Below, one piece after another: positions 21,087 through 60,650 of a stretch of 64,000 nucleotides of DNA. Made by a program: the position numbers and the translations under genes. A model generated the notes under the pieces. That model saw nothing but the letters and a program-made list of their open reading frames with translations, had not been told where the DNA came from and made no database searches. Position 1 is the stretch's first letter, and each line of letters opens with the position of its first letter. This DNA comes from an uncultured Patescibacteria group bacterium. GTDB lineage: Bacteria > Patescibacteriota > Microgenomatia > UBA1400 > PJMF01. The stretch covers positions 245,892 to 309,891 of the forward strand of contig CAJQIG010000001.1 in the NCBI GenBank assembly GCA_905478415.1. Reading direction: 5' to 3'.

Positions 21087-21088
21087 AA

Positions 21089-28303: not shown

Positions 28304-28895
28304 AATTAGCTCTCGGAACCAAATTGCTATCAAAGAGGTACGTGATGGAATTTTAGTTTTACCTAACAACAAGCATCGTTTAATTATTGAAACCTCATCG
28401 GTAAACTTTGAGCTCAAAAGTGAGGTTGAACAAGATGTGCTGATTGATAGCTTTCAGACCTTTCTAAACTCATTGCCTAGCCAACTTCAAATCTTGATTC
28501 GTATTCGTGAAGTTGATATTGATCAGTATGTTGACTCTATCGAAATACTAAAACAAACAGAAAACAATCCCAAATATTTGGAACAAATTGATGACTACAC
28601 CCAGTTTATTAGGCAACTTGTATCTGGAAATAAAATATTATCTCGAAAATTCTATATTGTGCTCCCATATAAACCAAATAATAACAAAAACGCCTTTGAT
28701 CTTGCCAAAACACAACTAACTTTGACACAAGATATGGTGATAAAAGCTTTAGAAAAACTAGGCATGAAAGCTAGAACTCTAAGTAGTCTAGAAGTACTCA
28801 ACCTCTTCTATAGTTTTTATAACAAAGACCAAATCAAAACTCAGGAACTTAATCAAACAATTATGAAATCACTTTTACAACATAACTATGTTTAA
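28275..28895 (+). CDS. VirB4/TrbE-family ATPase, N-terminal segment (206 aa) as a separate ORF
   Basis: Perfect SD AAAGGAGGA 5 nt upstream. Sequence IKEVRDGILVLPNNKHRLIIETSSVNFELKSEVEQDVLIDSFQTFLNSL matches the N-terminal region of monoderm VirB4 (PrgJ/TraE-like). Ends with a TAA that overlaps the next ATG (ATGTTTAA). Confidence 0.6.
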   Translation: MWLLKKSLNKISSRNQIAIKEVRDGILVLPNNKHRLIIETSSVNFELKSEVEQDVLIDSFQTFLNSLPSQLQILIRIREVDIDQYVDSIEILKQTENNPKYLEQIDDYTQFIRQLVSGNKILSRKFYIVLPYKPNNNKNAFDLAKTQLTLTQDMVIKALEKLGMKARTLSSLEVLNLFYSFYNKDQIKTQELNQTIMKSLLQHNYV

Positions 28896-30702: not shown

Positions 30703-31320
30703 ATGCATGCCATATTTACTGCACACACCATCTGGTCATTTAGAAAAGAACTTCAGTTTGTAGCTTTTGCCTTTTTAGTTTTAATTTCATTACCAATTAT
30801 TGCTGTAATTATTTTGACTCACACTGGAGTAAATATTGTTTCGGATGCTTTGATCGATGTTAATCCAGAATCTCAAACTATCCAAATTAAAAATCCAGCA
30901 GATGGAACAGTTGTAAAAGAAGTATCAAAGGAAGTGGCATGGCCAGTACAAGGTGTCACAACACTTGAGTTCGCCAAATCAAGTGGTTACCAAAAATTCC
31001 ATGCGGGAATAGATATTGCAAATTCACAAGGAAAAGTTGGTGATAAAATCACCCCATTTATGGAGGGAACTGTTATTTACGAAGGTGAAATATTTTGGGG
31101 TTATGGAAAACATGTGATTATTGATCATGGTGATAACATCACTTCTCTCTATGCTCATCTTAATAGAATTCAGGTTTTTAAAGGACAAAAAGTAAATGTG
31201 GGTGATACTATCGGAAATATGGGTAGCACTGGTTGGTCTACGGGGCCTCACTTGCATTTTGAGGTGAGGGTTTATGGGGTGCCGGTGAATCCGAAGGCGA
31301 TATTACAAGATACAAACTAG
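30703..31320 (+). CDS. M23-family (LytM-like) peptidoglycan endopeptidase with an N-terminal TM anchor; T4SS cell-wall hydrolase
   Basis: HAGIDIA ... GDTIGNMGSTGWSTGPHLHFEV, the HxxxD and HxH zinc motifs of peptidase M23. Confidence 0.85.
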   Translation: MHAIFTAHTIWSFRKELQFVAFAFLVLISLPIIAVIILTHTGVNIVSDALIDVNPESQTIQIKNPADGTVVKEVSKEVAWPVQGVTTLEFAKSSGYQKFHAGIDIANSQGKVGDKITPFMEGTVIYEGEIFWGYGKHVIIDHGDNITSLYAHLNRIQVFKGQKVNVGDTIGNMGSTGWSTGPHLHFEVRVYGVPVNPKAILQDTN

Positions 31321-31343
31321 CACTATATTGATAGAATGAACTT

Positions 31344-45704: not shown

Positions 45705-47132
45705 CTATTCAACCTTAATAACTGTCAACATACCTGCTTCAGCATGCTCTAAGACATGACAATGACTGACCCACGTGCCCTCATCGAGCGGAATCACTCC
45801 AATATCAATAACTTCTTTTGATTTTACTAAAACAGTGTCACGAAGATATGGTTCATCTACTGGTTCTCCATTTCTTGATAAAACTTTAAAAAATTGTCCA
45901 TGTAAATGCATTGGGTGTAATCTAGATGAGGCATTTGTGAAACGTATCACAGTAAACTCACCTTTTTTTAATATAATTGGGTCGTAATCTGGGTACGCTT
46001 TGCCATTAATTGTCCATTCAATGCCATATTGACCACCTCTTCTAGCATCAAGCACATACTCTTGGTTAATTTGCAAAGTATTTGTAGCATTCCAATCAGG
46101 AAATATTTGGGCTGTTGGAGTGGTAAACTCTTGAGCTTCAATAACTGTTCCATCAATTAAGATGCGAACCAAGCTATTTGTCTCTCGCGTAAAGATATCC
46201 CTGATAGAATACTGTTTTCTCTGAGATTCTAAAGGAATAGTGATATCAACATCTATTCTATTTCCGGGTGATAACTCAAATCCACTTGCAGAAAACGGTT
46301 CTTTTGAGAGCATGCCATCAACAGCAAAGCCTTTTACATCTAAACCACCAAAATCAAGTTGATACACTCTAGCATTCGATGTATTTACAAATCGCAGTCT
46401 TACTCGCTCTCCCGCCTTAGCATTCAGCGTATAGTCTGACAAACCATTAACGGTAACAATGTTCCCCCAGCGACCATCATGCATTAAGTCATGTCCAGTA
46501 TTAAAGCGTGAATCAATTTGGCCAGTTTGATCAATTCTCCAATCGTCAAGGATGACAACTTTGTCTTGATCATAGGTTGGTTCCTCAGGATCTTCTACAA
46601 CAATGGTTCCATATAACCCTCGTTCCACTTGTTCGCTTCCTCTAACATGTGGGTGGTACCAAAAAGTACCAGCATCTTTAGGAACAAATTCATAAATAAA
46701 TTTTTCACCTGGCTTTATCGGCTCTTGAGTTACTCCAGGAACACCATCCATAGCATTAGGGACTCTGATACCATGAAAATGAATTGTTGTTTCTTGAGGA
46801 AGGTTATTTTCAAAGTTAATTTTAAGCGTATCACCTTTTGAAACTCTGATTTCGGGACCTGGAACTTGTCCATTGTATGTCCAGACATCAATTGGGTTGC
46901 TCGCAAATAAATCTAGCGTTGCTTTTTTAGCAACCAAAGTAAATTCTTTGGTCACTCCGTTAGGTTCAATATCTTCTAGGTATGCGTTTTCATATATAGA
47001 AGAAGAGTTGGTCTGCAGATTTTTTTTCAGATATTTGGTTATAAAAAAAGACAGGAGCAATAAAAAAAAGAGTAAAAATACAAATTTTAATTGGGTACTT
47101 TTCGAATATATTGGGTTATTCTTATCTATCAT
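45705..47132 (-). CDS. Multicopper oxidase (CueO/CopA/laccase family), copy 2
   Basis: HFHG, YHPH, HPMHLHG and HCHVLEHAEAGM copper motifs. Paralogue of 23863-25296. Confidence 0.9.
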   Translation of the reverse strand: MIDKNNPIYSKSTQLKFVFLLFFLLLLSFFITKYLKKNLQTNSSSIYENAYLEDIEPNGVTKEFTLVAKKATLDLFASNPIDVWTYNGQVPGPEIRVSKGDTLKINFENNLPQETTIHFHGIRVPNAMDGVPGVTQEPIKPGEKFIYEFVPKDAGTFWYHPHVRGSEQVERGLYGTIVVEDPEEPTYDQDKVVILDDWRIDQTGQIDSRFNTGHDLMHDGRWGNIVTVNGLSDYTLNAKAGERVRLRFVNTSNARVYQLDFGGLDVKGFAVDGMLSKEPFSASGFELSPGNRIDVDITIPLESQRKQYSIRDIFTRETNSLVRILIDGTVIEAQEFTTPTAQIFPDWNATNTLQINQEYVLDARRGGQYGIEWTINGKAYPDYDPIILKKGEFTVIRFTNASSRLHPMHLHGQFFKVLSRNGEPVDEPYLRDTVLVKSKEVIDIGVIPLDEGTWVSHCHVLEHAEAGMLTVIKVE

Positions 47133-47147
47133 TACTATCTAGATTTG

Positions 47148-47636
47148 CTATTTTTCAAGTTGTTCTTTAAAAAACTTTAGTTCTTTATAGGTGTGGTTAT
47201 ATACAGCTTTTTCACCTTTAAATACACTCACAAAAAACCAGTGGATCACCTTACCAAAAACTGAGTCTGGAAAATCCATAAAAACATTATGATTTAAGTG
47301 TGTGCCATCTTCTTTTTCTTCGAGTGTGAGCAAACCACCTTCTGGAATTCTTATCTTAAAAAATAAAATTGGATATACAGCAACACCTGTCCATACCAAT
47401 ACTTTAGGACGATCTGCATACATTATTTGACCCTTTAAATCTGCATAAAAATTTGCGACTGTCTCTTTCTGATGAAACGTCACTTCGGTGTGCGGTCTAT
47501 TGTCTCTACTATTAAAAACCAAGCCCAAGTGCTCCTCTGGATTTGAAGCAGTCCAGTTCACAGGATCATGTGCATAATCCCAAATTTTTTCTGGTGAATT
47601 TTTAATGGTTATGTTGGTATTTTGTTTTAATAACAT
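47148..47636 (-). CDS. SRPBCC (START/Bet v1-like) superfamily protein
   Basis: Length and pattern KIWDYAHDPVNW...TFHQKETVANFYADLKG are typical of polyketide-cyclase/AHSA1-like folds. Low specificity. Confidence 0.4.
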   Translation of the reverse strand: MLLKQNTNITIKNSPEKIWDYAHDPVNWTASNPEEHLGLVFNSRDNRPHTEVTFHQKETVANFYADLKGQIMYADRPKVLVWTGVAVYPILFFKIRIPEGGLLTLEEKEDGTHLNHNVFMDFPDSVFGKVIHWFFVSVFKGEKAVYNHTYKELKFFKEQLEK

Positions 47637-47642
47637 AGTAAT

Positions 47643-49793
47643 TTAGAGTTTTAGCTCAACCTTTCTAAGTGTCATTGCATTAATAACTACTACCACGCTT
47701 GAGAGACTCATAAGCAACGCTCCCACAGCAGGACTGAGGCGAAACCCAAAAGGAATAAATAGTCCTGCAGCCGCGGGAATAGCAACTAGATTATATCCAA
47801 GAGCCCACCAAAGATTTTGCAACATCTTTGAGTATACTTTTCTTGATAAGAGTATGAGTCTCACAAGGTGTTGTGGATTACTTTGAGTAAGAATAATATC
47901 TCCGGCTTCAACCGCTACATCCGTACCTGCTCCAATAGCAACTCCCACGTCTGCCTGTGTTAAAGCTGGGGCATCATTGACACCATCTCCAGCCATAATG
48001 ACCACATTGCCTTGCTCCTGAAGTTGCTTAATATGCTTATATTTGTCTTCTGGCAGTACTTCTGCAAATACTAGATCTATTTCCAGTTCTTTTGCAACTG
48101 GCTGGGCAGCTGACTTAATATCACCTGTTAACATTGCAACTTTCACTCCAAGTTTATGTAGTTCTTGCACTGCTTGTTTTGATTCTTCTTTGATTTCATC
48201 ACTGAGTGCAATTACTCCCAATATTTCAGAATCACTAGAAATGAAAACAGGAGTTTTACCTTTACTCGCCAATTGATCTAGAGCTTCTTGAGATGTTTTA
48301 GTCCAAACTTTTCTTTCTTCCATTAATCGCTGGTTTCCTAAAAAGTATTCTTTCTTTTCAAAATATCCTTGCATACCTCTGCCTGCTAGATTTTTAACCT
48401 TAGTTGCTTCACTGAAAGTAATCTTTTTCTCTTGTAAGTAATCAAGAATAGACAAACCAATGACATGAGAAGAGTGTGATTCTATAGCTCCAGCAACTTT
48501 GAGTAGTTGGTCTTCTTCTCCAGAAATCACTACCACGTCAGTTACGCCGAACTCTCCTTTTGTCAACGTTCCCGTTTTATCAAAAACTACGTAATCAGTG
48601 CTTTTTACAATCTCAATTTTTCCCATATCTTTAATAAATACTCCATTTTTGACAGCTAGCCTGGTTGCAATAGTTGAAACAGTCGGTATAGCCAAACCCA
48701 AAGCATGAGGACAAGCAATCACTAATACGGTAATTGCTAGTGTTGCAGAAAAAACTAAGGGTTGTCCAATTACTACTGACCAAATAAATAACGATGAAAA
48801 CGATACAGCTATAGCAAAAAATGTAAGCCATTTCGAGGCCTTATCAGCTAATTTTTGAGCAGAAGGTTTTGTCTGCTTAGCTTGAGAAATAAGGCTTTGA
48901 ATTTGACCGATGGTAGATGAATCTCCAACACGTAATAATTTAATTTCAACAGAACCATCAATACTAATTGCCCCAGCTACAACTTCTGAGCCCACATCTT
49001 TCTTAACTGGCTTTGACTCTCCTGTAATATGTGATTCATTAAAACTTCCACTACCTTTAATAATTTCTCCATCAGCTGGAGCTTTTTCCCCTGGTTTAAC
49101 AATAACAATGTCGCCTTCTTTCAGTCTTGAAATCTCAACCTCTGTTACACCTGACTCCGTTTTAAGATGTGCTTCCTTTGGAAGTAATTTTGCTACTTCT
49201 TGCAGTGCATCTCCAGCTGCTGTAGATGATTTTGCTTCTAAAAAATGTCCAAAAAGCAGCACCCAAATAAGAGTAGCTATTTCTAAATAAAATTCAACTT
49301 GAAGAGCCGGTATAAAGGTGGATAGTGCTGAAAATATGTATCCAGAACCAACTCCAAGCGAAACCAGCGTCATCATGCCATATTGTCTTGCCATAATTTC
49401 ATGGCGTGCATGGTCAAAAAAAACCAAGCCAAAATAAAAGATTATAGAAGCAATGCCAAACTCAAGTAATGACCTCAAAGCAAAGTCTGGGACACCTAAA
49501 AATTTTACAGCTGGCTCAGAAAAGATAGCTAGAGGAACCAGGAGAACGGTAACAATATAAAATCTTCTTAAAAATTCATGAGCTGCTTCTGGAGTTGCCA
49601 TCATGCTAGCGTGATCATGTTTGTCATGTCCACCACCCATCTCACTTTTTTTAACTAATTCCATACCACACTTGGAACATTCCCCAGGATGGTCCTGGTG
49701 TATTTCTGGGTGCATGGGACAGGTATAATAATCAGCTTGGTGGTTATGTGCTACATGTTGCATATTTTTCTTACTGTGATGTGAGTGTTTCAT
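47643..49793 (-). CDS. copB: CopB-type copper P1B-3 ATPase (TM6 CPH motif) with a His-rich N-terminus and a CPMHPE...CxxCGM heavy-metal-binding domain
   Basis: MKHSHHSKKNMQHVAHNHQ; YTCPMHPEIHQDHPGECSKCGMEL; TGES; ACPHALGLAIP; DKTGTLT; MLTGD; GDGVNDAPAL. Confidence 0.85.
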   Translation of the reverse strand: MKHSHHSKKNMQHVAHNHQADYYTCPMHPEIHQDHPGECSKCGMELVKKSEMGGGHDKHDHASMMATPEAAHEFLRRFYIVTVLLVPLAIFSEPAVKFLGVPDFALRSLLEFGIASIIFYFGLVFFDHARHEIMARQYGMMTLVSLGVGSGYIFSALSTFIPALQVEFYLEIATLIWVLLFGHFLEAKSSTAAGDALQEVAKLLPKEAHLKTESGVTEVEISRLKEGDIVIVKPGEKAPADGEIIKGSGSFNESHITGESKPVKKDVGSEVVAGAISIDGSVEIKLLRVGDSSTIGQIQSLISQAKQTKPSAQKLADKASKWLTFFAIAVSFSSLFIWSVVIGQPLVFSATLAITVLVIACPHALGLAIPTVSTIATRLAVKNGVFIKDMGKIEIVKSTDYVVFDKTGTLTKGEFGVTDVVVISGEEDQLLKVAGAIESHSSHVIGLSILDYLQEKKITFSEATKVKNLAGRGMQGYFEKKEYFLGNQRLMEERKVWTKTSQEALDQLASKGKTPVFISSDSEILGVIALSDEIKEESKQAVQELHKLGVKVAMLTGDIKSAAQPVAKELEIDLVFAEVLPEDKYKHIKQLQEQGNVVIMAGDGVNDAPALTQADVGVAIGAGTDVAVEAGDIILTQSNPQHLVRLILLSRKVYSKMLQNLWWALGYNLVAIPAAAGLFIPFGFRLSPAVGALLMSLSSVVVVINAMTLRKVELKL

Positions 49794-49841
49794 ACCTTCA
49801 TTATGACGATACTACTGATTGCTGTCATCACCAATGTTTTG

Positions 49842-50423
49842 TTATTTATTGCTTGCTTTTTTTATAAAAAAATATATTCCTGATAATAAAAATGAAATAA
49901 ATGCAAACCAGGTTAATCCTGATTGAATTCCAAACAAATTACCACCCCAACCCATCATTGACATGTCCCTTGGGTAAAAATTATTTGATTCATTATCTCT
50001 GAGTCCCATCATGGAGCCCCCCGTCATCATTCCTTGTGAATAACTGGTTCCACAACCCAAGTACCTACTTCCCATACGTATATGTACTTGTCTTAATGAT
50101 TCTGACCCTTCGCCACCCATCATTCGATCCATAACTTCATGAGCCTCTCCAGGGTGCTGTTGTTCCATCACCGCATCTCCAAGTTGCTCTAGGTCATCTT
50201 CACTTATTTCGTCACAACTTACCTCTTGAATAGTAGTACTACCTTGCTTCTCGAGTATTGCTTGTAAGACAGTTTCAATGGACTCTCCATGTTGAGTTGT
50301 TTCTGTATCACTGCTTTCAACTTCATTTAAACCCATCATTCCCCCTTGAGCTTGAGCTATTTTAGTATGAAAAAACAACAGATTCAAAAAAAGAAAAAAA
50401 ACTACAAATAGAAAACGTTTCAT
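49842..50423 (-). CDS. Methionine-rich secreted or membrane-anchored protein (putative Cu(I)-binding; MMG/MxxM clusters)
   Basis: Signal peptide, then MMGLNEV..MDRMMGGEG..SQGMMTGGSMMGLRD..DMSMMGWGG, and a C-terminal TM. Met-rich motifs as in CopB/PcoB/CusF-type copper binders. Confidence 0.55.
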   Translation of the reverse strand: MKRFLFVVFFLFLNLLFFHTKIAQAQGGMMGLNEVESSDTETTQHGESIETVLQAILEKQGSTTIQEVSCDEISEDDLEQLGDAVMEQQHPGEAHEVMDRMMGGEGSESLRQVHIRMGSRYLGCGTSYSQGMMTGGSMMGLRDNESNNFYPRDMSMMGWGGNLFGIQSGLTWFAFISFLLSGIYFFIKKASNK

Positions 50424-50436
50424 ATCAACCCTCCTG

Positions 50437-50835
50437 TTACTTTGTAGCAGTATTCAAGGCACTTATCAGTTTACTCTCCACATCTTCAGCAATCACAGCA
50501 ACATCCGGATTACTTGATAATGTCAGAGCAACAGAAGGCTTCATTACACTTATAAAAACACGAGTATCTTCTTCATAGACAATTACATTACAAGGAAGAA
50601 GAAGCCCTATCTCTCTTTCAGCTTGCAATGCCTTATATGCATTTGGTGGGTTACATGCACCAAGTATCATGTATTTTGAATAATGAGTATTTAATTTTCT
50701 TTTAAGTGTTTCTTGAACATCAATCTGAGTCAAAATCCCAAAACCTTCTCTATTCAAAGAATCAATTATATCTAACACAGCATCTGAGAACTTTCCTTCA
50801 TACTGTTTTGTGACTGCATATTTTACTGTATTCAT
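50437..50835 (-). CDS. DUF302-domain protein, copy 2
   Basis: Roughly 80% identical to 25312-25743 (estimated by eye). Confidence 0.6.
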   Translation of the reverse strand: MNTVKYAVTKQYEGKFSDAVLDIIDSLNREGFGILTQIDVQETLKRKLNTHYSKYMILGACNPPNAYKALQAEREIGLLLPCNVIVYEEDTRVFISVMKPSVALTLSSNPDVAVIAEDVESKLISALNTATK

Positions 50836-50838
50836 ACG

Positions 50839-51093
50839 TTACCCTCCAATATATTTCTCTGGATCATCTCTAAAATGAGTTTTGCAGTGATCAGAACAAA
50901 AAAAATATGTCGTATCTTTGTATTGCAGACTATATCTGGATTTTTGAGATACATCCATCCCACATACTAAGTCAATGTCACCAACACTGGGCTCAATATG
51001 CATTCCCAGTTTAGACAATTCTTTATCAGTTACTGTTACCATAAGAACTTCCTTAAAATACTTTTTATTGACTTGCTTCTTACATACTAACAA
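50839..51093 (-). CDS. YHS/TRASH-domain metal-binding protein (84 aa)
   Basis: VCGMDVSQKSRYSLQYKDTTYFFCSDHCKTHF: a CGM...FCS..C YHS domain. Confidence 0.7.
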   Translation of the reverse strand: MLVCKKQVNKKYFKEVLMVTVTDKELSKLGMHIEPSVGDIDLVCGMDVSQKSRYSLQYKDTTYFFCSDHCKTHFRDDPEKYIGG

Positions 51094-51126
51094 AGAGCAG
51101 ATGAAGCGAAGATGAAATCTTGCTCT

Positions 51127-51759
51127 TTATCTTGCGATCTGTTCTGGTGAATTATTTTTATTTGTATTAATGTACTTCTGAATCAAAACCTCATCCACAC
51201 TTTCCAACTCCATCATTTTTCCCCATGAAGCAACTACTACATTTGAATCATTTTTTGACCGAGGGGACACTATGACACTTTGTGGATTGTCTTTACCAAT
51301 ATTCCTCAACTTTTCTATTGATTCATCATCAATATTTTTGTATGAAATCCAAATTCCTCCATGTTCTAAACCATGCACAGCTGCTTTATCTTCAATTTCT
51401 TCTTTATATACCCCCCAGTTTTCTGCCAAAGATAGGTGATCGCCTGAAGTTGGAGGATTTGTTTGGTACTCTACAACTGCTTGAGAGGAAATATGCTCTC
51501 TTCCTTCAATCTCAAACTCAGTCACCTTGCCATCCAACGAAACTTCTTTAACCTCTTCTTCAAACTCAATCTGTTTTGGTGTCTTTTTTGTAATCTGTTT
51601 GTAACTAACAACTACTACTAGTAAAACTAGTAGTGTAAGAAAGGTCTTTTTCGTCTTTTGAAATACAGCCGTGCTCTTTTTTTGATTTCTCTTTAATTCC
51701 TTGATTTTTCTTCTTCGCTCATGTTTAGGCAACTGATTCCATTCTTCTGGATATTGCAT
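51127..51759 (-). CDS. DUF3105-family membrane-anchored protein
   Basis: PPTSGDH...HGLEHGGIWISY conserved blocks. Single TM after a basic N-terminus. Confidence 0.5.
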   Translation of the reverse strand: MQYPEEWNQLPKHERRRKIKELKRNQKKSTAVFQKTKKTFLTLLVLLVVVVSYKQITKKTPKQIEFEEEVKEVSLDGKVTEFEIEGREHISSQAVVEYQTNPPTSGDHLSLAENWGVYKEEIEDKAAVHGLEHGGIWISYKNIDDESIEKLRNIGKDNPQSVIVSPRSKNDSNVVVASWGKMMELESVDEVLIQKYINTNKNNSPEQIAR

Positions 51760-51782
51760 AACTGTCCCCTCATTACATTATT

Positions 51783-52532
51783 TTATACTGCCAACGTATT
51801 CAAATTAAAAAACTGAAGTAATTTTATAGAAACTAACTCAACTCTTCCGAGTATTAGTAGTACCCCCATCAAAAGTATCACTAAAGCAGCGAGTATATTT
51901 AGATATTTCCCCACTTTTTTTGTTACTGAAAGTTTCGTAGCTATTTGTTCAAAGAATAGTGCCACTACTAGAAATGGCAGACCTAAACCAACTCCATATG
52001 CTAGTAAAAGACTAACCCCCTTGAATAAACTTTCAGCCTGAGCTGACCAAAAAAGAATGACTGCTAACACAGGCCCTATACATGGTGTCCATGCAAAACC
52101 AAAAGTTAAGCCTACTAGAAACGAGTTCAGTTTTCGAAATCGAGTAGGTGAGAGGGGTAACGAAATTTTTCTTTCACGATATAGAAAAGTTGGTTTAAGT
52201 ACTTTTAACATAAATAAACCCATGAGAATAAACAGAGCCCCACCAGCTTTCTGAATAAATGGTTTATAGACACCCAACATTCTTCCCAAGGTATTGGTTG
52301 TAGCTCCCAATAAGACAAAAACAAATATAAAACCAAGAGTAAAGATAAGTCCATTTAAGAAGATATCTCGTTTGTAGATTACTTTACCCAGGTCGTTCTC
52401 TGTTCTAGAAACGGTGAGCCCTGAAAGGTAGGCAATATATGTTGGAACTAGTGGGAGCAAACAAGAGGCGAAAAAAGTTATAATCCCACCTATAAAAGCA
52501 ATTAAGAGGTTTACTTGTGATCCATCAAACAT
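51783..52532 (-). CDS. ccdA: Cytochrome c biogenesis / thiol-disulfide electron transporter CcdA (DsbD family)
   Basis: SCLLPLVPTYIAYLSG (CxxP..P) in TM1 and a second Cys motif WTPCIGP. Six TM helices. Confidence 0.8.
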   Translation of the reverse strand: MFDGSQVNLLIAFIGGIITFFASCLLPLVPTYIAYLSGLTVSRTENDLGKVIYKRDIFLNGLIFTLGFIFVFVLLGATTNTLGRMLGVYKPFIQKAGGALFILMGLFMLKVLKPTFLYRERKISLPLSPTRFRKLNSFLVGLTFGFAWTPCIGPVLAVILFWSAQAESLFKGVSLLLAYGVGLGLPFLVVALFFEQIATKLSVTKKVGKYLNILAALVILLMGVLLILGRVELVSIKLLQFFNLNTLAV

Positions 52533-52600
52533 ATACTTTTTTTCTAATCAAACTTATAAAAAAGCAGGCAATCTTATAATTGATTGCCTGCTCACACCTC

Positions 52601-53464
52601 TTATAAATATTTTTCGATCGCTTGCTTCACCTGTTCATAAGGTAAGGCTCCTGGAATTAGCTCTTGAACTCCATCATCTGTGACGATAAATGTCCCCGGA
52701 GTTCCTGTGACTCCTGCTGCGCTGCCAGTTGTAAACTGATCTTGGACTCTTTGTGCCATTTCATCACTATCTAAACAGTTCTGAACTGCGGCTTGATCTG
52801 CACCAGCTTCAGCTCCCAGTGCTGCTAAGTCTGATAATGGAAATCCTGTTCCATTTGAACTTGTCCTTTCAAAGTAAAGATCTCCGAACTTCCAAAAGGC
52901 ATCATTACCGGCCAAACTTCCAACACACTCAGCTGCCTCAGCTGCCTTTTGGGCGTTAGCATGAAAATTCAACGGATAATGCCTATAAACCCATGCTATC
53001 TCATCTCCATATTCCTCCAGGATTTGTTGCATTGTTGGGTGAAAACGCTGACAAAATGGACACTCAAAATCTGAGTACTCTACAAGAGTAATCTTTGGAT
53101 TCTTTGCCCCTCTTTTATACTCATTAGCCTCAACAGGTGGTAAATCCCCCAGTTGAGCATCTGTTGGCCCAGAAGGGGCATTAGGCACAGTTGGAGGTTG
53201 TGCAACACCCACTGGACCAGTATTACTGGCACCCTTATTTGACCCATTGGCTAACATTTGATTTTCGGTCCACAATGAACCAATAAAAAAACCACCAATA
53301 GAAAATAAACCAATAATAATGAATAAAACAAAATTACTGTTTATAAAACCCAAAAATGATTGTAAAGAATACGACTGCGATCCTTGCATATGTAACTTCC
53401 TATACTGAATATAACTAATACCTCCTACAACTGTAGGAGGTATTGACAATAATGTCAATTGCAA
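52601..53464 (-). CDS. Membrane-anchored DsbA-like thioredoxin-fold oxidoreductase
   Basis: EYSDFECPFCQRFHP (CxxC) and the cis-Pro region GTPGTFIV. TM anchor, then a Pro/Gly-rich linker. Confidence 0.75.
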   Translation of the reverse strand: MQLTLLSIPPTVVGGISYIQYRKLHMQGSQSYSLQSFLGFINSNFVLFIIIGLFSIGGFFIGSLWTENQMLANGSNKGASNTGPVGVAQPPTVPNAPSGPTDAQLGDLPPVEANEYKRGAKNPKITLVEYSDFECPFCQRFHPTMQQILEEYGDEIAWVYRHYPLNFHANAQKAAEAAECVGSLAGNDAFWKFGDLYFERTSSNGTGFPLSDLAALGAEAGADQAAVQNCLDSDEMAQRVQDQFTTGSAAGVTGTPGTFIVTDDGVQELIPGALPYEQVKQAIEKYL

Positions 53465-53467: not shown

Positions 53468-54436
53468 TTATTCTCGAGGAGAAAAAAGTATGGCAGGAGA
53501 AAAATTAATCTTATCTGATTCATAATGGCTCACACAGTCATTTGTCTGACATTCCCTACTATCACTACAAACTAAGTCGCGAAGATCTGCATTTATTCTT
53601 GAAGGATTAAAAACAAACAATAGAAACATACTAGTAACCGTCACTACACTTACTGTCATTTTCTTCAAATCAATTTTATTTGAGTCAATGCTCCCAGAAA
53701 CTAAGTATTCTATCCTTTGAGTAATTGGTGGTGTAGCAAACTGAAGAGCAACCCCATCTTCAAACGTAAGGCTTAATGCTAAAGATGAGCATAGATGGCT
53801 CTTAGTTCTTTGAGTTTCTATTACAAAAGCATCAGCGGCCAACTCAAATTCCAGTATTAGTTTTTGAACTAATACTTCTATTACTGGAACAAAAAAAAGG
53901 AGTGAACTAATTAACTTTGAGAATAACAATAACCACATGTGGAAATGTCTAACATGATAGGACTCATGGAGTACAACCGCCTCAAGTTGCTTAAAAGAAA
54001 ATGTATCTATCATACGGTTAGATACAATAATTTTTGGCTTAAAAAAACCAATGGTATATGCTGTTGAATCAACTGAATCAATAATTGAAAAAGAAATATA
54101 CTCCAAATCATGCTTTCTAATAATTGAGTTTAATTTTTGAGAAATTGATTTTGATTTCAAGTGAGATCCAAGCTTTCTGTAAGAGAACAGAAAGACTACT
54201 AAACGCCTCAGCATTAAAAGTAAACCCAAAATACCAGTTGCTAAAACAAGCAATGATAAAAGAGTGTAAAAATTAAAATGAACATGTTCCTGAAGATCAC
54301 TCAAAACATTAGTACACACTGTGATTAGAGAGTTCGCTATAAATTGGATGTTAATTTCTAATAAAGTAAATCCTAAAACAAGTATGCTCGCTGATATAAA
54401 AAATATGCTCAGTGGGGTTACTACTCTAAAATTCAT
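53468..54436 (-). CDS. BlaR1/MecR1-like M56 zinc metalloprotease (signal transducer) lacking the penicillin-binding sensor domain; Cys-rich C-terminal tail
   Basis: Four N-terminal TM helices, an HEXXH site (LHESYHVRHFHMW), and C-terminal CSDSRECQTNDC. The start overlaps the blaI-like stop by 4 nt. Confidence 0.7.
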   Translation of the reverse strand: MNFRVVTPLSIFFISASILVLGFTLLEINIQFIANSLITVCTNVLSDLQEHVHFNFYTLLSLLVLATGILGLLLMLRRLVVFLFSYRKLGSHLKSKSISQKLNSIIRKHDLEYISFSIIDSVDSTAYTIGFFKPKIIVSNRMIDTFSFKQLEAVVLHESYHVRHFHMWLLLFSKLISSLLFFVPVIEVLVQKLILEFELAADAFVIETQRTKSHLCSSLALSLTFEDGVALQFATPPITQRIEYLVSGSIDSNKIDLKKMTVSVVTVTSMFLLFVFNPSRINADLRDLVCSDSRECQTNDCVSHYESDKINFSPAILFSPRE

Positions 54437-54801
54437 TTTTTTTGAAGTGTGTCTATCATCTTTTTTCTCGTTTCTTCAGATAATTCATCGATACCATTAA
54501 CAAATGCTAGTAAAGCCTCATCTCCAAACTGACGGACAAAATTGTCCATGCTCTGACTCACAATTTTTTGAATAACATTCTTTTTCTTATCTTTTGATGT
54601 ATACACATGTGTTTTACCTTCTAACATTCTTTCAAGCACTCCTTTATCAACAAGTCTAGTCATTACTGTTTGAACGGTATTATAGGCAATTCGTTTATTT
54701 TTACTTAAATCTTGAAAAATATCTCTAGCTGTTGAACTTTTTTTCTTCCATATAGAGTTCATTATTTCCTGTTCAAGGGGTCCAAAAGAAACTTTTTTCA
54801 T
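54433..54801 (-). CDS. BlaI/MecI/CopY-family winged-helix repressor (no CopY-type C-terminal Cys cluster)
   Basis: N-terminus MKKVSFGPLEQEIMNSIWKKKSSTARDIF...YNTVQTVMTRLVDKGVL matches BlaI. Operator-like palindrome directly 5' of the ATG. Confidence 0.8.
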   Translation of the reverse strand: MKKVSFGPLEQEIMNSIWKKKSSTARDIFQDLSKNKRIAYNTVQTVMTRLVDKGVLERMLEGKTHVYTSKDKKKNVIQKIVSQSMDNFVRQFGDEALLAFVNGIDELSEETRKKMIDTLQKK

Positions 54802-54802: not shown

Positions 54803-54816
54803 CCTACGAGTGTAGG
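54803..54816. promoter_or_regulatory. Palindromic operator candidate CCTACGAGTGTAGG (contains TACGAGTGTA, a TACAnnTGTA-like cop/Bla box) abutting the blaI-like start
   Basis: Identical core to 25931-25944; 5-bp arms CCTAC/GTAGG. Confidence 0.5.
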
Positions 54817-55808: not shown

Positions 55809-56069
55809 TTACTTTTGAGTAATCATAGTATAAACAGTAGCAAAAGAATAAACTAAAAGAAAGCTTATCACTCCTGCTTCAATCATTCCACTCACTAATC
55901 CAATTACTGTTAAGTTAAAAAACATGTGCCATTTTGACATCTGTTCCGCAGCAGAAACATAGAGCCCCATATTGGCTAATAACCAAATAACCAGCATTAA
56001 CAGTGCTGACCAAACTGCAGCTGCTAAAGCAATTGAGCTGGTGTTAAGTTTGTTTTTTTTGTTCATCAT
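55809..56069 (-). CDS. Small membrane protein (86 aa, 2 TM)
   Basis: Two hydrophobic helices. Within the co-directional array. Confidence 0.4.
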   Translation of the reverse strand: MMNKKNKLNTSSIALAAAVWSALLMLVIWLLANMGLYVSAAEQMSKWHMFFNLTVIGLVSGMIEAGVISFLLVYSFATVYTMITQK

Positions 56070-56089: not shown

Positions 56090-56551
56090 TTATAGTTTCC
56101 AATTAAAAGAACCTGATTGATTATCAATTCCTTCTATCTCAATAGTAACTGAAGTTACAGTATCTTTCAATTCTGCAAAGACAACCTGACCTGATAAGTG
56201 ATGGCCACCAGCTTCACCTGTCCATTCTTTGACTAAGTACTCATCTCGATTTTGATCATACATTTTAATAATCTTTGTATAATCGTAATCTAGTTCAACC
56301 GAGTGTGTATTCAATTCTAAGTTAAATAGGACCTCTTTATTCGTCTCTAGCTGCACTGGAGTTAACTCTAATGTAACTGCTCCCATTTCCTTTAATTGGG
56401 ATTGTAAACCGGAGTTCTCAGCAACCTTACTGACTACTTCTTGCTCCTTAGCTTTACCCAATACTTTCTTTTCTGTCTTTCCTCCAAATGATTGTATTAC
56501 TATAAAACTTAAAACTAATACCGAAAAAATAAACACTAACTTTCTTTTCAT
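56090..56551 (-). CDS. Secreted or lipoprotein-like protein (153 aa) with a GGHH motif
   Basis: Signal peptide MKRKLVFIFSVLVLSFIVIQS. No Cys. EWTGEAGGHHLSGQ may bind metal. Confidence 0.4.
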   Translation of the reverse strand: MKRKLVFIFSVLVLSFIVIQSFGGKTEKKVLGKAKEQEVVSKVAENSGLQSQLKEMGAVTLELTPVQLETNKEVLFNLELNTHSVELDYDYTKIIKMYDQNRDEYLVKEWTGEAGGHHLSGQVVFAELKDTVTSVTIEIEGIDNQSGSFNWKL

Positions 56552-57075
56552 ACGACCTTTCTCACATGTACTTTAAAATACTTTTTTATATCTCTTATTT
56601 TTGGTTTTTCAAAAATAAACCATAACATCATAAACATGCCAATAAAATTAGCAATAACTCCTAAGATAAGTAACTCTTCTTGATACTCTGTTAGAAATAC
56701 TGCAGCAGCAGAAAGCCCAAGTATAGGTAAAACATCAACAACATGATGTGCGCAGCAAGCAACCATGGCCATTCCAGATACTGCAGTACCAGTCCCAACT
56801 GCTAAGTTAGCATCACTTTTATCTCTCAAACTAAAAAAAACACCATTTTTCATCAGCCAATACAAACCCATTTGTATGGAAAAACCTAATAGCAACAGAC
56901 CCATCCATGGCTGAGAAAGCACAAACTGTTGAAATGGATGAGATACGTCTTTAGTAACTAGAAACAATAATAGATAATAGAAACTACTCAGTGAAACAAG
57001 GCCAATAAAGAATCCTTTAAAAAAAATAGTTATATTTTTGTCTCTAAGTAAACTTTTTTTAAACATAGAACCCAT
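56548..57075 (-). CDS. Four-TM membrane protein with an intramembrane ACCAHH motif
   Basis: MAMVACCAHHVVDVLPILGL within TM3. Start overlaps the upstream stop. Confidence 0.45.
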   Translation of the reverse strand: MGSMFKKSLLRDKNITIFFKGFFIGLVSLSSFYYLLLFLVTKDVSHPFQQFVLSQPWMGLLLLGFSIQMGLYWLMKNGVFFSLRDKSDANLAVGTGTAVSGMAMVACCAHHVVDVLPILGLSAAAVFLTEYQEELLILGVIANFIGMFMMLWFIFEKPKIRDIKKYFKVHVRKVV

Positions 57076-57243
57076 TTAACAACAGCCCTTGGGAGCTTGT
57101 TCGCTCTTCTTTGCTTTCTCATTTTCTGCTTTACCAATTTTCCAAAACAATCTTTTAATAAAATTCTTTGGTTGAGTACTCTCATTTTCTTCACTGGTAG
57201 TTTCTAAAACGTTCATCTTTGGCTTACCACAACAATCACTCAT
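57076..57243 (-). CDS. Unannotated small protein (55 aa) with N-terminal and C-terminal vicinal Cys pairs (MSDCCGKP...KGCC); candidate thiophilic-metal or sulfur carrier
   Basis: Perfect SD TAAGGAGG 4 nt upstream of the ATG at 57243. Stop abuts the next ATG. Below the 60-aa ORF-track cut-off. Hydrophilic body with a Cys doublet at each end. Confidence 0.55.
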   Translation of the reverse strand: MSDCCGKPKMNVLETTSEENESTQPKNFIKRLFWKIGKAENEKAKKSEQAPKGCC

Positions 57244-57252
57244 AAAGCCTCC

Positions 57253-58023
57253 TTACTCTTTTATTACATTTGCAGTAATGACTGCTTCTAATTCTTTATA
57301 GTCATCTCTATCTGTTTCAATATAAATGGTTCTAGAGAGCTCACCTAAGTCAGTATCGTCTTTATGTACCGCCGGATCAAAACTCACGCTTACTGTAGTA
57401 CTTTCATAAGGGCCAAGCTCTTCATTTTCAACAGTTGCCTTAGTACAGCCACATGAAGTTGATACTCTGGTTATTTTTATAGGTAATGGCATATAATTAG
57501 TAAACGTAAACTCTGTAGTTGCTACATCACCATAAACAACTGTCCCCAATGCTCTTTTTTCAGGTAATAGACTCACTGAAACTTGTTGTTCTTTATATGC
57601 ATTCGTTCCACCATCCAAATCGTAAACGCTTTCATATCCTAGTTCGCTCAACTCTTTTGAAGCTCTTGCACTCATACTGCCAGACCTACAATAGACTGCA
57701 ATAGGTGTAGACTTATCCTCAGGCAATTGCTCTAAATACTGAGGAATTTGATCAAACGGAATCAAAGCATCTGTTCCAGGAATATGAGTCTGCTCGGGTG
57801 TGTGAACGTCTACAACAAAGACAGTATCATCTGCAATTAGTTGATTAAATTCTTCTGAGTTAACCAATATAACACCACTTTCATTTTCTACTATCTCTTG
57901 TGAAGAAATAAACGATGTTACATATGACTGCAATTGATTTCTAAATGTAAACCAAACGGTCACAATCAATAATAAAAAAAGACCAATTAACAAACTTTTA
58001 ACATTAATAGTATTATTTTTCAT
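57253..58023 (-). CDS. Membrane-anchored rhodanese (sulfurtransferase) domain fused to a DUF1573 beta-sandwich domain
   Basis: Rhodanese active-site loop VYCRSGSMSARA. C-terminal DUF1573-like TFTNYMPLPIKITRVSTSCGCTKA. N-terminal TM. Confidence 0.7.
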   Translation of the reverse strand: MKNNTINVKSLLIGLFLLLIVTVWFTFRNQLQSYVTSFISSQEIVENESGVILVNSEEFNQLIADDTVFVVDVHTPEQTHIPGTDALIPFDQIPQYLEQLPEDKSTPIAVYCRSGSMSARASKELSELGYESVYDLDGGTNAYKEQQVSVSLLPEKRALGTVVYGDVATTEFTFTNYMPLPIKITRVSTSCGCTKATVENEELGPYESTTVSVSFDPAVHKDDTDLGELSRTIYIETDRDDYKELEAVITANVIKE

Positions 58024-58025: not shown

Positions 58026-58517
58026 CTACTTCCTTACTTCACCAAACATTTTGAATGATAATTTTGGATTTGATGCATCATTTGTATCAACAGTTATCTC
58101 TCTGTTAATTGAACCAACTCCACTTGGACCATGAAATAATGGGTCAAAAACAGCCTTAATAATAACAGACTCACCTGGTTGTACTTCATAAACGTACTTT
58201 GATTTAGAATGCATACCGAATTCCGGTGATTCTTTTTCTCCAGAAACAAATCTGGCATTCGTACAACTACATGAAGTTATTAAATTATAAAACTGTAATA
58301 CATCAGAACCCTCATTAATAACCTCATACTCTGCAGTTATTTTTCCATCATTAATTCCAACTTCACCAAAATCATGAAGTGCATTCTGGACAGATGCTTT
58401 TGCATTTGAAGTTGCAACTACCTGCACTTGAGAATCATCAGATAGCGCAAATACAGCTCCCCCAAAAAGTATTACCGTAATAGCAATAATAGAAATTACC
58501 ACAATATTATTTTTCAT
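58026..58517 (-). CDS. DUF1573-domain protein (membrane-anchored), paralogue 1
   Basis: FYNLITSCSCTNARF...VFDPLFHGPS motif set shared with 57253 (C-terminal half) and 60675. Confidence 0.6.
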   Translation of the reverse strand: MKNNIVVISIIAITVILFGGAVFALSDDSQVQVVATSNAKASVQNALHDFGEVGINDGKITAEYEVINEGSDVLQFYNLITSCSCTNARFVSGEKESPEFGMHSKSKYVYEVQPGESVIIKAVFDPLFHGPSGVGSINREITVDTNDASNPKLSFKMFGEVRK

Positions 58518-58573
58518 ACACTTCCTTTATTACTCATCTTTATATGTTGATTATATTCAATTTTTCGAATATA

Positions 58574-58620: not shown

Positions 58621-59301
58621 ATGAAAATACTATTAGTAGAAGATGACAAGACTCTTTCAAGTACAATTAAAGAAACTTTAGAAAGTCAAACATTTGCTGT
58701 TGATTTGGTTTCAACAATAGATGCTGCACAATTTCAAATAGAAGAGTTCACCAAAGAGTATGATTGTATCGTTCTAGATATCAATCTCCCTGATGGTAAT
58801 GGCTTTGACCTATGTAAAGACATTCGTAATAAAAAAATCACGACACCTATCATCATGATGACAGCCAGGGATACTCTTGAAGAAAAAATTAAAGGACTCA
58901 ACATCGGAGCTGATGATTACATCACTAAACCATTCTCAATTCAGGAATTAATTGCCAGAATAAAATCAATTATAAGAAGAAGTAGTAAAGAACCTTTGCC
59001 AATAATTACAGTCGGAAGACTAGAGGTTAATCCACAGACGATGAGAGTCTTAAATAATAAAAAACCAATCAATTTATCCTCTAGAGAATTTTCAGTTTTA
59101 GAAATCTTAGCAAGACATAGTGATGAAGTTGTTACCAGAAGTATGTTAATGGAACATGTCTGGGGAAGTGACTTTGAATCATTCTCAAACGTAATAGATG
59201 TCTATATAAAAAACCTAAGAAAAAAAATCGATGCTGGTCAACAAAATAAGTTACTACACACAATCAGAGGTAGCGGATATAGCTTATCTAATAAAAGATG
59301 A
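58621..59301 (+). CDS. OmpR-family response regulator (receiver plus winged-helix)
   Basis: Receiver motifs LVEDD, VLDINLPDG, MMTARD. C-terminal wHTH RLEVNPQT...SREFSVLEIL...VYIKNLRKKID. Confidence 0.85.
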   Translation: MKILLVEDDKTLSSTIKETLESQTFAVDLVSTIDAAQFQIEEFTKEYDCIVLDINLPDGNGFDLCKDIRNKKITTPIIMMTARDTLEEKIKGLNIGADDYITKPFSIQELIARIKSIIRRSSKEPLPIITVGRLEVNPQTMRVLNNKKPINLSSREFSVLEILARHSDEVVTRSMLMEHVWGSDFESFSNVIDVYIKNLRKKIDAGQQNKLLHTIRGSGYSLSNKR

Positions 59302-60650
59302 TATTTTTTAAAACACTCCGCGGGAAACTAACCATTATATTTTTTGTTTCAACAGTTACTATTACTATTCTAACTTTTTTTCTATTAATCTTTACTACTC
59401 AAAAACTAATTTTTGATCAAGTAAATCATCATCTACATATTGTCATAAACGAAGCTAAGAAAATTGTTGAAGAAAATCATGAAGTTGATAATATCGAACC
59501 ACTAAAAAACTTGGTAAGTGCTCAAGGCATGACTGTTATTTTATTATCAAGTGATGGATCTCCAATCCTACAAACAAATAGTTTTGATGTGGCAGACGTA
59601 ACAGAACATCAAATGCAACAAATTGTATTCTCAAGTACCAATAAAGAAGAACCACAACACTTTAGTGTTAATCAAATGCAGTTTGCTACTGTTCCCGTAA
59701 GTATATACGGTTATCAAGATGGAATATTAGCAGTTGGATTCTCTACAAAGATTATTAACAACACAATAAAAGAAATAACTACTATTATTATTTTTGTACT
59801 TCTACTAAGTATTACTGTCGTCAGTATAGTATGGCAAACAATCATTAAACATTATCTTTTACCTTTAGAAAAGATTTCTCAGTCTGCTTTACAAATTAAA
59901 AAATCATCTGACCTAAATAAAAAAGTTAAAACAAATACCACTACAATTGAACTCAAAAACATCACAGCATCTTTTAATAATTTACTAGAGAAATTAAAAC
60001 AAGTTTTTGAAGAGGAACATCTATTTTTTTCTGATACTGCGCATAGCTTAAAAACACCTCTAGCCGTTATTAGATCATACATTGAAACACTACCCAGACA
60101 ACAAAACAAAAAGAAAAATGAAATTCTAAATTATATAGATTCCTTAAATGAAACAATTCAAGACTTATTAATTATTTCTAAAATTAACACTAGTTATCCG
60201 AAAAACAGTAAGCAAATTAATTTTTCAGAAATAGTTAGTACGATTGCTGAACTAACTCAGACAATAGGGTTAGAAAAAAATATTACGGTTAATCAAGTTA
60301 TTGAAAAAAATATTTTTATTAATGCAGATGAACAGCTGTTAACCAAAGCTATATTAAATGTAATAAAAAATGCTGTTGATCATGAAAGTCAGAATGGCAC
60401 AATTACAATCAGTTTGAATAAAAAAAATAATATTTCGGAGCTTTTAATTAAAGACACTGGTGTAGGGATTAGTAGCAAAGATCTCAAAAGTATCTTTAAT
60501 AGATTTTACCAAAGTAAAAATTCTCAATCAAAAAAGGGTAATGGACTTGGCCTCTCTATATCCAAAGCTATTATTGAAAGATTTGAAGGAAAAATAACTA
60601 TTTCATCTAAAATTAAAAAGGGGACTTCAGTTTTCATCTTCTTTTCATAA
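59298..60650 (+). CDS. Sensor histidine kinase (two TM helices, HAMP-like, HisKA, HATPase)
   Basis: H-box FFSDTAHSLKTPLAVI. N box and G boxes NAVDHES, IKDTGVGIS, GNGLGLSI. Confidence 0.85.
   Translation: MIFFKTLRGKLTIIFFVSTVTITILTFFLLIFTTQKLIFDQVNHHLHIVINEAKKIVEENHEVDNIEPLKNLVSAQGMTVILLSSDGSPILQTNSFDVADVTEHQMQQIVFSSTNKEEPQHFSVNQMQFATVPVSIYGYQDGILAVGFSTKIINNTIKEITTIIIFVLLLSITVVSIVWQTIIKHYLLPLEKISQSALQIKKSSDLNKKVKTNTTTIELKNITASFNNLLEKLKQVFEEEHLFFSDTAHSLKTPLAVIRSYIETLPRQQNKKKNEILNYIDSLNETIQDLLIISKINTSYPKNSKQINFSEIVSTIAELTQTIGLEKNITVNQVIEKNIFINADEQLLTKAILNVIKNAVDHESQNGTITISLNKKNNISELLIKDTGVGISSKDLKSIFNRFYQSKNSQSKKGNGLGLSISKAIIERFEGKITISSKIKKGTSVFIFFS

Follow-up and report, generated by a model that had tools for sequence, protein, structure and literature searches.

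The 64,000-nt stretch of Patescibacteria DNA analysed here (hereafter the window) carries, at 57076-57243 on the minus strand, a 55-codon open reading frame (ORF) whose product bears one Cys-Cys pair close to its start and another at its end. This ORF is a real gene under purifying selection, and from its sequence and gene neighbourhoods we favour, with some caution, the reading that the product is a CopZ-like cytoplasmic protein that carries or buffers Cu(I) on its thiolates at the membrane surface. The two vicinal Cys-Cys pairs, on flexible N- and C-terminal arms, would bind a soft thiophilic metal, most likely Cu(I), and a cationic, aromatic amphipathic helix would hold the peptide at the inner face of the membrane or attach it to a partner. 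Made in stoichiometric amounts with the copper-resistance genes, the peptide would collect cytoplasmic Cu(I) and deliver it to an exporter or relay in the membrane. Among the candidate acceptors are a CPH-type (CopB-like) ATPase with a heavy-metal-binding domain (HMBD) and, in the type A loci described below, the CCAHH protein and a Cys-Cys variant of DsbD_TM. Within this scheme we infer that the peptide binds metal and which metal this is, that it associates with the membrane, and in which direction and to which partner the metal passes.

The translation of the ORF matches MSDCCGKPKMNVLETTSEENESTQPKNFIKRLFWKIGKAENEKAKKSEQAPKGCC exactly. A sequence-only reading of this DNA had described the same 55-aa ORF, leaving its minus strand unstated, and had credited it with a perfect Shine-Dalgarno sequence at 4-nt spacing; both are found as described.

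57076-57243, minus strand: 55-aa small protein with an MSDCC N-terminus, a central FIKRLFWKIGK and a KGCC C-terminus
57248-57255, minus strand: Shine-Dalgarno sequence TAAGGAGG, followed by CTTT and then the ATG (4-nt spacer)

The arrangement can be seen in the stretch AGTAAGGAGGCTTTATG, where TAAGGAGG stands 4 nt ahead of the peptide's ATG. The TAA inside TAAGGAGG is the stop codon of the upstream rhodanese-DUF1573 gene, and the peptide's own TAA abuts the ATG, at 57075, of a 175-aa gene, the CCAHH gene (the NCBI call of that protein begins three codons later, giving 172 aa). TAAGGAGG occurs three times in the window where 1.5 copies are expected, a number that chance could explain, and it is the position that counts. 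Among 24 starts checked (those of 22 genes of the surrounding copper island, an alternative CCAHH start and a GDCCVxC gene outside the island), the Shine-Dalgarno sequence of the peptide is the strongest, tied only by that of the GDCCVxC gene, which would suit an abundant carrier. Sequences of this kind are also kept by the type A homologs in loci L011, L094 and L100 (TAAGGAGA, AAAGGAGA and TAAGGAGG). The tight packing between two genes, which had been noted as well, is true of the window but is not conserved among relatives: the next gene follows after 4 nt in L011 but after about 146 nt in both L094 and L100, where this 3′ spacer shows no conservation and no convincing structure. Likewise, the ORF was missing from the ORF track used by the sequence-only reading, but public gene calls already include an identical protein (P0001), nameless, on 27 contigs from NCBI, ENA and Logan assemblies, the longest of 584 kb. 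On one contig with the identical peptide (L002), the upstream gene (366-1583) is called as a 405-aa protein without a Pfam hit, in place of the 256-aa rhodanese-DUF1573 protein.

Homologs were recovered by an exhaustive profile search of 1.84 billion representatives and a word-indexed profile search, which yielded P0126-P0132. The family comprises eight full-length proteins of 54-69 aa that share 40-71% identity, together with one truncated member (P0132); the closest homolog, P0002 from L011, is 71% identical and lies in the same syntenic slot, and the core members have profile-search E-values of 1e-18 to 1e-23. Positions M1, S2, C4, C5, P25, N27, W34, K35, I36, G37, K52, C54 and C55 are invariant, so that all four cysteines are kept in 8/8 full-length members. 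The signature of the family consists of an N-terminal MS.CC, a core helix P.N..[KE][RK][LF][FL]WKIG and a C-terminal K[SG]CC followed by at most six residues, within a length of 54-69 aa, and the window protein fits it. The amphipathic helix, rather than the arms, is the most conserved part, and the N-terminal arm varies in length, with extra Cys/His or a second CC in P0128, P0130 and P0131.

Selection acts in the reading frame of the peptide. The ratio of non-synonymous to synonymous substitution rates (dN/dS) in the annotated frame is 0.15 between the window and L011 and 0.19 between L096 and L098, against 0.80 and 1.08 in the +1 and +2 frames of the first comparison, where shifted frames are also interrupted by 3-9 stop codons; within the conserved core, seven changes are synonymous and one is non-synonymous. 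It is thus the peptide, and not just the nucleotide sequence, that is conserved. Together with the eight diverged full-length homologs and the conserved ribosome-binding site and synteny, this confirms the earlier proposal that the ORF is real. That it is spurious or decaying, or a precursor of a ribosomally synthesized and post-translationally modified peptide (RiPP), is highly improbable. Its small size and its cysteines would be in keeping with such readings, as would the truncation of P0132, but the in-frame purifying selection is strong and the exact sequence stands on 27 contigs. The RiPP reading was rejected because no radical-SAM, YcaO, LanM/lanthipeptide or other maturation enzyme, and no export protease, was found among the called genes of the contexts examined or among the scanned proteins of the window island. 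P0132 itself (L097, 4319-4501) has apparently lost about 50 nt relative to L098, and its peptide frame enters the csoR start; it is either a decaying copy or an assembly artefact.

The family is rare: in 5.8 billion proteins it forms about nine clusters. In Pfam and NCBIfam the peptide has no match, even at lenient thresholds, and a profile search against PDB sequences returned chance matches only (NSD3, E about 1). No match was obtained by tblastn of the peptide and the CCAHH protein against plasmid records, and no description of the peptide family was found in the literature on copper resistance in the candidate phyla radiation (CPR) and on DUF5643, DUF5676, DUF302 and YHS together. Several candidates were discarded: P0125, a 522-aa repeat protein, had matched on the word RLFWK alone and was spurious, and L091 and L092, from a scan of metagenome contigs, contained chance LFWKIGK words inside unrelated ORFs.

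In an AlphaFold2 (AF2) model built on the family alignment, the peptide forms a single helix at residues 28-48, with a predicted local distance difference test score (pLDDT) of about 75, and both Cys-Cys pairs lie on low-confidence tails. The conserved segment FIKRLFWKIGK, which is cationic and aromatic, has a strongly amphipathic character (hydrophobic moment 0.78 over residues 29-39). The peptide contains no transmembrane (TM) segment, its maximum 19-residue Kyte-Doolittle hydropathy being -0.71, and a lipoprotein or secreted reading was rejected as no signal peptide or lipobox was found in it. Cysteines account for 4 of the 55 residues (7%), arranged as two terminal CC pairs with no CxxC.

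All family clusters (9/9), which come from ultra-small CPR bacteria, are located in a copper or heavy-metal resistance gene cluster. Type B loci number five, with a duplicate contig (L093, L096, L097, L098/L099 and L101). Here the peptide gene comes first, followed by a gene for a 91-aa CsoR (PF02583) and then by (YHS), DUF302 and an HMBD P1B ATPase; the P-type ATPase is seen where the contig reaches far enough, and in L096 a 90-aa CsoR homolog, 71% identical to the CsoR of L093, stands at the contig end. Every type B peptide gene is preceded by the same promoter, in which TTGAC(A/T) and a TA..GT box flank a spacer with A(T/G)ACCC-N3-4-AGGGGT(G/A); this element occurs once per locus, about 50 nt 5′ of the ATG, and only eight times in the 1.57 Mb of all fetched loci. 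Its palindrome is CsoR-box-like and a putative CsoR operator, matching the published boxes, described as G-tract pseudopalindromes, of C. glutamicum (ATACCCCnnnGGGGTAT; PMC5057107) and Streptomyces (ATATACCCCTNAGGGGTATAT; PMC3902906). The type B CsoR residues Cys35, His60 and His64 constitute the x-C-H-H motif of the T. thermophilus-type cluster, whose members are assigned as Cu(I) sensors and whose csoR genes normally neighbour CopA and CopZ (PMC8643695); the Thermus cso operon comprises copZ, csoR and copA (PMC10318464). A motif scan detected no GMxCxxC (HMA-type) CopZ in the window or in any family locus, the sole HMA-like protein being a MerP-like GMWCSSC protein in the mer operon of L097. 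First behind a CsoR-box promoter, and beside csoR and the ATPase, the peptide thus occupies the slot that is usual for CopZ.

In the four type A loci (the window, L011, L094/L095 and L100), the peptide gene lies between the rhodanese-DUF1573 gene and the CCAHH gene. The genes come in the order DUF1573, rhodanese-DUF1573, the peptide, a 172-176-aa membrane protein, a 153-aa protein and an 86-aa membrane protein; next are DsbD_TM-like, BlaI-like, BlaR1-like, DsbA-like and CcdA genes, and then those for DUF3105, YHS, DUF302, a protein rich in Met and a P1B ATPase. Divergent from this series are the genes of a response regulator and a histidine kinase. The corresponding features of the window are as follows.

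58621-59301, plus strand: OmpR-type response regulator, divergent
59298-60650, plus strand: histidine kinase, divergent
58026-58517, minus strand: DUF1573 protein, 163 aa, first gene of the type A operon (Pfam, synteny)
57253-58023, minus strand: rhodanese + DUF1573 protein, 256 aa, with an N-terminal membrane anchor, upstream of the peptide (Pfam)
56548-57075, minus strand: CCAHH four-helix membrane protein, 175 aa (or 172), unnamed family, downstream of the peptide
56090-56551, minus strand: DUF5643-like protein, 153 aa, hydrophobic near the N-terminus, where an anchor or signal peptide is predicted
55809-56069, minus strand: small membrane protein, 86 aa, position conserved in L011 and L094
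54848-55756, minus strand: DsbD_TM-like membrane protein, 302 aa (Pfam PF02683)
54433-54801, minus strand: BlaI/CopY-like repressor (Pfam; best NCBIfam match CopY/TcrY, below cut-off)
53468-54436, minus strand: BlaR1-like M56 sensor-protease (Pfam)
45705-53464, minus strand: rest of the copper island (Pfam), including the next two genes
47643-49793, minus strand: HMBD/His-rich CPH-motif P1B ATPase (Pfam, TIGR01511, motifs)
45705-47132, minus strand: multicopper oxidase (Pfam)

The other genes in 45705-53464 encode a 162-aa protein, a Met-rich 193-aa protein, DUF302, YHS, DUF3105, CcdA and a DsbA-like protein. With its ATPase, multicopper oxidase, Met-rich protein, YHS and DUF302, the island is, by its gene content, a copper island. 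With 556 bits against a cut-off of 397, the ATPase is recognised by the copper-ATPase model TIGR01511; its transmembrane motifs are CPH/YN/MSLSS, and it has an HMBD and a His-rich N-terminus. Its CPH motif presumably places it in the P1B-3/CopB-type subclass. Pumps of this type are copper-specific (PMC9433437). For the response regulator, TIGR01387 (heavy-metal response regulator) is among the top NCBIfam matches, with a score below cut-off, and the 86-aa membrane protein has no family match above the curated cut-offs of Pfam and NCBIfam. The Met-rich protein (window 49842-50423, minus strand; L093 8896-9447) is conserved, secreted or membrane-anchored, and has no family assignment; it carries the motifs MMGGEG, GMMTGGSMMG and MSMMGWGG and lies between DUF302 and the copper ATPase in both locus types.

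Two of the membrane proteins encoded after the peptide in the type A operon, CCAHH and the DsbD_TM-like protein, are of interest as possible acceptors. The CCAHH family has 278 homologs and 387 loci in species-representative genomes, spread over Patescibacteria, Nitrospirota, Chloroflexota, DPANN archaea and others, and the motif AMVACCAHH..D.LPILG is invariant in the family alignment. AF2 gives a reasonably confident four-helix model (pLDDT 79) for the CCAHH protein, which has no PDB sequence or fold relative and no Pfam or NCBIfam match. Neighbourhoods were fetched for the best 79 of the 387 loci (L012-L090), and in none of these is the peptide directly upstream of CCAHH; the peptide is therefore not an obligate CCAHH partner. 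In other phyla, the upstream neighbours of CCAHH include HMBD ATPases, cupredoxins, a multicopper oxidase, CsoR and YHS. An ICMT/PEMT-family membrane methyltransferase lies directly upstream of CCAHH in 4/59 loci, and C-terminal -CC/-CCX motifs recall eukaryotic prenylation and carboxymethylation signals, but the presence of the methyltransferase is probably a coincidence.

Directly 3′ of CCAHH, the 153-aa protein is a conserved partner across phyla, a DUF5643-like gene being nearly always found at this place, with NTHS and GGHH near-invariant; among 45 aligned +1 neighbours, 14 match PF18705 (DUF5643). The DsbD_TM-like protein has one CC pair in TM1 (APCCISY), another in TM4 (SSCCAPV) and a third in its C-terminal tail (KSCCENH), whereas CcdA and DsbD carry single cysteines in TM1 and TM4. 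All three pairs are kept in L011 (5741-6649) and L094 (9623-10510), and none of them is present in the type B DsbD_TM homolog of L093. The tail of the DsbD_TM-like protein, KSCC(E/D)(N/S)H, is of a cytoplasmic type and resembles that of the peptide. Six vicinal Cys pairs are thus distributed over three proteins of the type A operon.

The peptide module also occurs fused to a known metal-binding domain. A 104-aa protein of a Patescibacteria metagenome-assembled genome (L020) combines an HMBD (PF19335, E 1.6e-15) with the whole peptide module, which aligns to the peptide profile with an hhalign probability of 93.6% (E 2e-7); MSHGCGC replaces MS.CC, FIGRYLYNLGK replaces FIKRLFWKIGK, and the protein ends in GGCC. 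An HMBD with a KHKGGCC tail is found in L017, and L038 and L042 have YHS domains whose tails read HSCCG and HGCC. In several loci from Nitrospirota, the gene that comes directly after the DUF5643-like one is for a His-rich protein with a single TM segment and a GCCH or GCCG terminus. The HMBD (PF19335) and YHS/TRASH (PF04945) proteins resemble the peptide in their K/G-rich CC tail and their neighbourhood; they differ from it in having a folded metal-binding domain, where the window peptide has an N-terminal MS.CC arm instead. Small ORFs with a CC tail are enriched within 3 kb of CCAHH on its own strand (29/2006 vs 17/2743 on the opposite strand; odds ratio 2.35, p = 0.006).

More broadly, small HMBD, YHS/TRASH-like and single-TM His-rich proteins ending in ...G(G/H/S)CC(H/G/-) recur beside CCAHH modules in Patescibacteria, Nitrospirota, Chloroflexota and Woesearchaeota, at the following positions.

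L017: 3183-3350
L020: 7098-7412
L033: 3524-3694
L035: 1613-1771
L036: 2338-2538
L037: 6045-6248
L038: 616-951 and 4848-5033
L042: 2802-3194
L043: 4666-4848
L051: 6629-6838
L056: 1011-1175
L077: 5404-5583
L087: 5631-5909

A 48-aa ORF from Woesearchaeota (L031, 4045-4191) matches the core and tail of the peptide weakly (hhalign probability 63%).

These neighbours raise the tentative possibility, which we hold with low confidence, that the peptide, the other CC-tail proteins, CCAHH, its DUF5643-like partner and sometimes the Cys-Cys DsbD_TM variant make up an unrecognised thiolate relay that would move Cu(I) or another soft metal across the membrane. The peptide would then be one of several interchangeable cytoplasmic donor arms, the HMBD, YHS and single-TM His-rich proteins being others, in a Mer-like relay that works for copper and either is independent of the P-type ATPase or feeds it.

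The gene upstream of the peptide could point to a different chemistry. A rhodanese-domain gene is directly upstream in 4/4 type A loci, with the rhodanese-DUF1573 gene of the window in the same slot in L011, L094 and L100, and the peptide could be imagined as part of a thiol-disulfide or persulfide relay, a cytoplasmic carrier for the rhodanese-DUF1573 or DsbD/CcdA-like proteins. DsbD_TM-like, CcdA and DsbA-like genes share the island, and the CsoR superfamily includes persulfide sensors (PMC8643695). We nevertheless consider such a role improbable. The rhodanese and DUF1573 proteins are probably extracytoplasmic, since they have N-terminal membrane anchors, whereas the peptide has neither a signal peptide nor a TM segment; the type B loci have no rhodanese, and the HMBD fusion indicates metal rather than sulfur. 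Vicinal disulfides, moreover, are strained. The x-C-H-H motif of the regulators has His, not Cys, at the last ligand position (PMC8643695), so that they lack the dithiol of CstR-type persulfide sensors. The sequence-only reading had proposed a "metal or persulfide carrier", and the two halves of that proposal fare differently. The metal half gains circumstantial support from the 9/9 clusters in metal islands, the CsoR-box promoter and x-C-H-H CsoR of type B, the HMBD fusion and the YHS/HMBD proteins that share the CC tail. The persulfide half has the neighbouring rhodanese gene as its sole argument, and that gene is absent in type B and its product membrane-anchored, with regulators that lack the CstR motif.

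A role in regulation would also account for some of these features. The Cys arms of a small regulatory protein could sense metal and its helix could bind a partner, modulating the ATPase, a CCAHH transporter or CsoR, by analogy with small membrane-associated transporter modulators such as MntS for manganese. The amphipathic helix, as the most conserved part, would suit a protein or membrane interface, the gene is the first of the csoR operon in type B, and its immediate neighbour varies between CCAHH and CsoR. Such a function is in our view distinctly unlikely: the very strong Shine-Dalgarno sequence suggests a high copy number, the four cysteines are invariant in 8/8 full-length members, and the HMBD fusion and the YHS/HMBD proteins with the same tail better fit a metal-handling module.

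The main rival to Cu(I) is a carrier of Hg(II), or of thiophilic metals more broadly (Hg, Ag, Cd), forming a Mer-like thiolate relay with CCAHH and the Cys-Cys DsbD_TM protein. A vicinal -CC- is a hallmark of MerT and MerF and is said to confer Hg(II) selectivity (PMC5500634), and MerA employs a C-terminal vicinal pair (PMC3466566); in the type A operon, six vicinal pairs are spread across three proteins. More than one metal, moreover, acts on the T. thermophilus CsoR in vitro (PMC5057107), and the L097 peptide gene comes directly after a cluster of ArsR, MerT, MerP-like and MerA-like genes. This last peptide gene, however, has a CsoR-box promoter of its own and goes with csoR and the ATPase, outside the mer operon. 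No MerA was found in the window, L093, L094 or L098; a 477-aa ORF of the window at 23863-25296, considered in the search for MerA, is a second multicopper oxidase. The ATPase passes a copper model, and the island also has multicopper oxidases, a Met-rich protein and YHS. A mercury or broad soft-metal function is thus unlikely in our estimate.

Several points weigh against the Cu(I) carrier that we favour. Metal binding is read from motifs and neighbours only, and, according to PMC5500634 (which cites DeSilva 2002), vicinal Cys pairs prefer Hg(II) to other metals. Classical Cu(I) chaperones use CxxC, whereas the peptide uses CC; with four cysteines per protein its metal capacity would be low, and its AF2 model is low in overall confidence (pLDDT 60.7). 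The 64-kb window contains no CsoR and no CsoR box, which makes copper induction of the window copy uncertain, and the two matches to the cop box (TACAnnTGTA) in the window are both intragenic and at chance level. P0132 (L097) lacks the C-terminal CC pair, and with about nine clusters only, the family is no general replacement for CopZ. As to the acceptor, most CCAHH loci are without the peptide and no single obligate partner emerges: the L093 peptide has no CCAHH within 8 kb on either side, and in L097 both are present but non-adjacent. The positive-inside rule, furthermore, would put the CCAHH motif toward the outer half of the membrane, which makes a hand-over from a cytoplasmic peptide uncertain.

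Compared with known systems, the peptide resembles in setting, but not in architecture, CopZ/Atx1 (HMA, PF00403), a small cytoplasmic protein encoded beside csoR and a copper P1B ATPase, as the peptide is in type B. CopZ/Atx1 binds its metal via thiolates, and we propose the same for the peptide, which however lacks the HMA fold, GMxCxxC and any sequence similarity, has two vicinal CC pairs in place of a single CxxC, and is modelled as one helix with disordered arms. In MerF, MerT and the C-terminal CC of MerA, vicinal pairs on flexible or terminal segments pass on a soft metal (PMC5500634, PMC3466566), and the type A operon, like the mer system, also encodes membrane proteins with intramembrane CC pairs. 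Unlike MerT, MerF and MerC, the peptide has no transmembrane helix, no PF02411 match, no homology to Mer proteins and a copper context.

MymT is a small copper-binding metallothionein of M. tuberculosis under the CsoR-family repressor RicR. The peptide is likewise a cytoplasmic Cys peptide of about 50 residues, with type B relatives behind a CsoR-family operator; MymT, however, is Cys/His-rich and holds several Cu(I) in a cluster, whereas the peptide has four terminal cysteines and an amphipathic helix. It shows neither the high Cys content nor the clustered C-x-C/C-x-x-C of metallothioneins, and its four terminal cysteines and conserved helix would suit transfer better than storage. The GDCCVxC family (NF041374) is also a small Cys-Cys family, with a window member among metal-resistance genes. 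By eye, its proteins have zinc-ribbon-like CxxC pairs and one internal CC, and the peptide has no NCBIfam match to, and no sequence relationship with, NF041374. In the window's GDCCVxC gene (23641-23844, minus strand, 67 aa), the start is likewise preceded by a perfect TAAGGAGG at a distance of 4 nt; the gene product matches NF041374, "GDCCVxC domain-containing (seleno)protein", with an E-value of 1.8e-26, and the neighbours of the gene are an ArsR-like regulator and the second multicopper oxidase.

The window copy of the peptide gene is under a different control from that of type B. For the type A operon, a candidate operator is the palindrome ATATTCGAAAAATTGAATAT at 58553-58572, which overlaps a TATAAT box (58550-58555) in the divergent promoter and is kept in L011 and L094 despite diverging flanks. 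TGTAA(C/G)TTA(G/A)G repeats lie upstream of ATATTCGAAAAATTGAATAT in the window and L011 only. An inverted repeat, CCTAC-ACTC-GTAGG (54803-54816, minus strand), stops 1 nt short of the start codon of the BlaI/CopY-like repressor gene and may be an autoregulatory site or a translational hairpin.

The metal-resistance region of the window as a whole (9456-62140) resembles an integrative conjugative element, here in the genome of a CPR bacterium. The gene for tRNA-Glu (9456-9529) directly adjoins that of a large serine recombinase (9482-11047). Further along lie genes for a coupling protein of a type IV secretion system (T4SS; 11374-13965) and for a Replic_Relax protein (14981-15751), and then a T4SS block (26120-35552); the GC content is 0.31-0.39 within the element vs 0.41-0.44 outside. 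In L094, the same T4SS block adjoins the copper island directly. An att repeat of the tRNA-Glu 3′ end was sought at the far end of the island and none was found. In a second metal-resistance cluster, at 17914-25743, two more P1B ATPases are encoded, one with a CPC motif and accompanied by a CadC/ArsR-like regulator, the other with an APC motif and accompanied by an ArsR-like regulator. A DsbA-like protein, the second multicopper oxidase (23863-25296) and a second DUF302 (25312-25743) also belong to this cluster.

The peptide family is best described as new and rare, filling the known niche of a small metal carrier of copper operons with an unusual architecture. CPR/Patescibacteria have tiny genomes, and their handling of toxic metals is almost unexplored. 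If the peptide does carry Cu(I), the near-universal HMA-type CopZ would be replaceable by a largely disordered protein of roughly 55 residues, and a vicinal-Cys chemistry so far tied to mercury hand-over would serve copper. The peptide also gives a first functional handle on the CCAHH and DUF5643-like families, which travel with copper genes in many phyla, and makes the recurring ...GCC tail of small metal-binding proteins testable in the same way.

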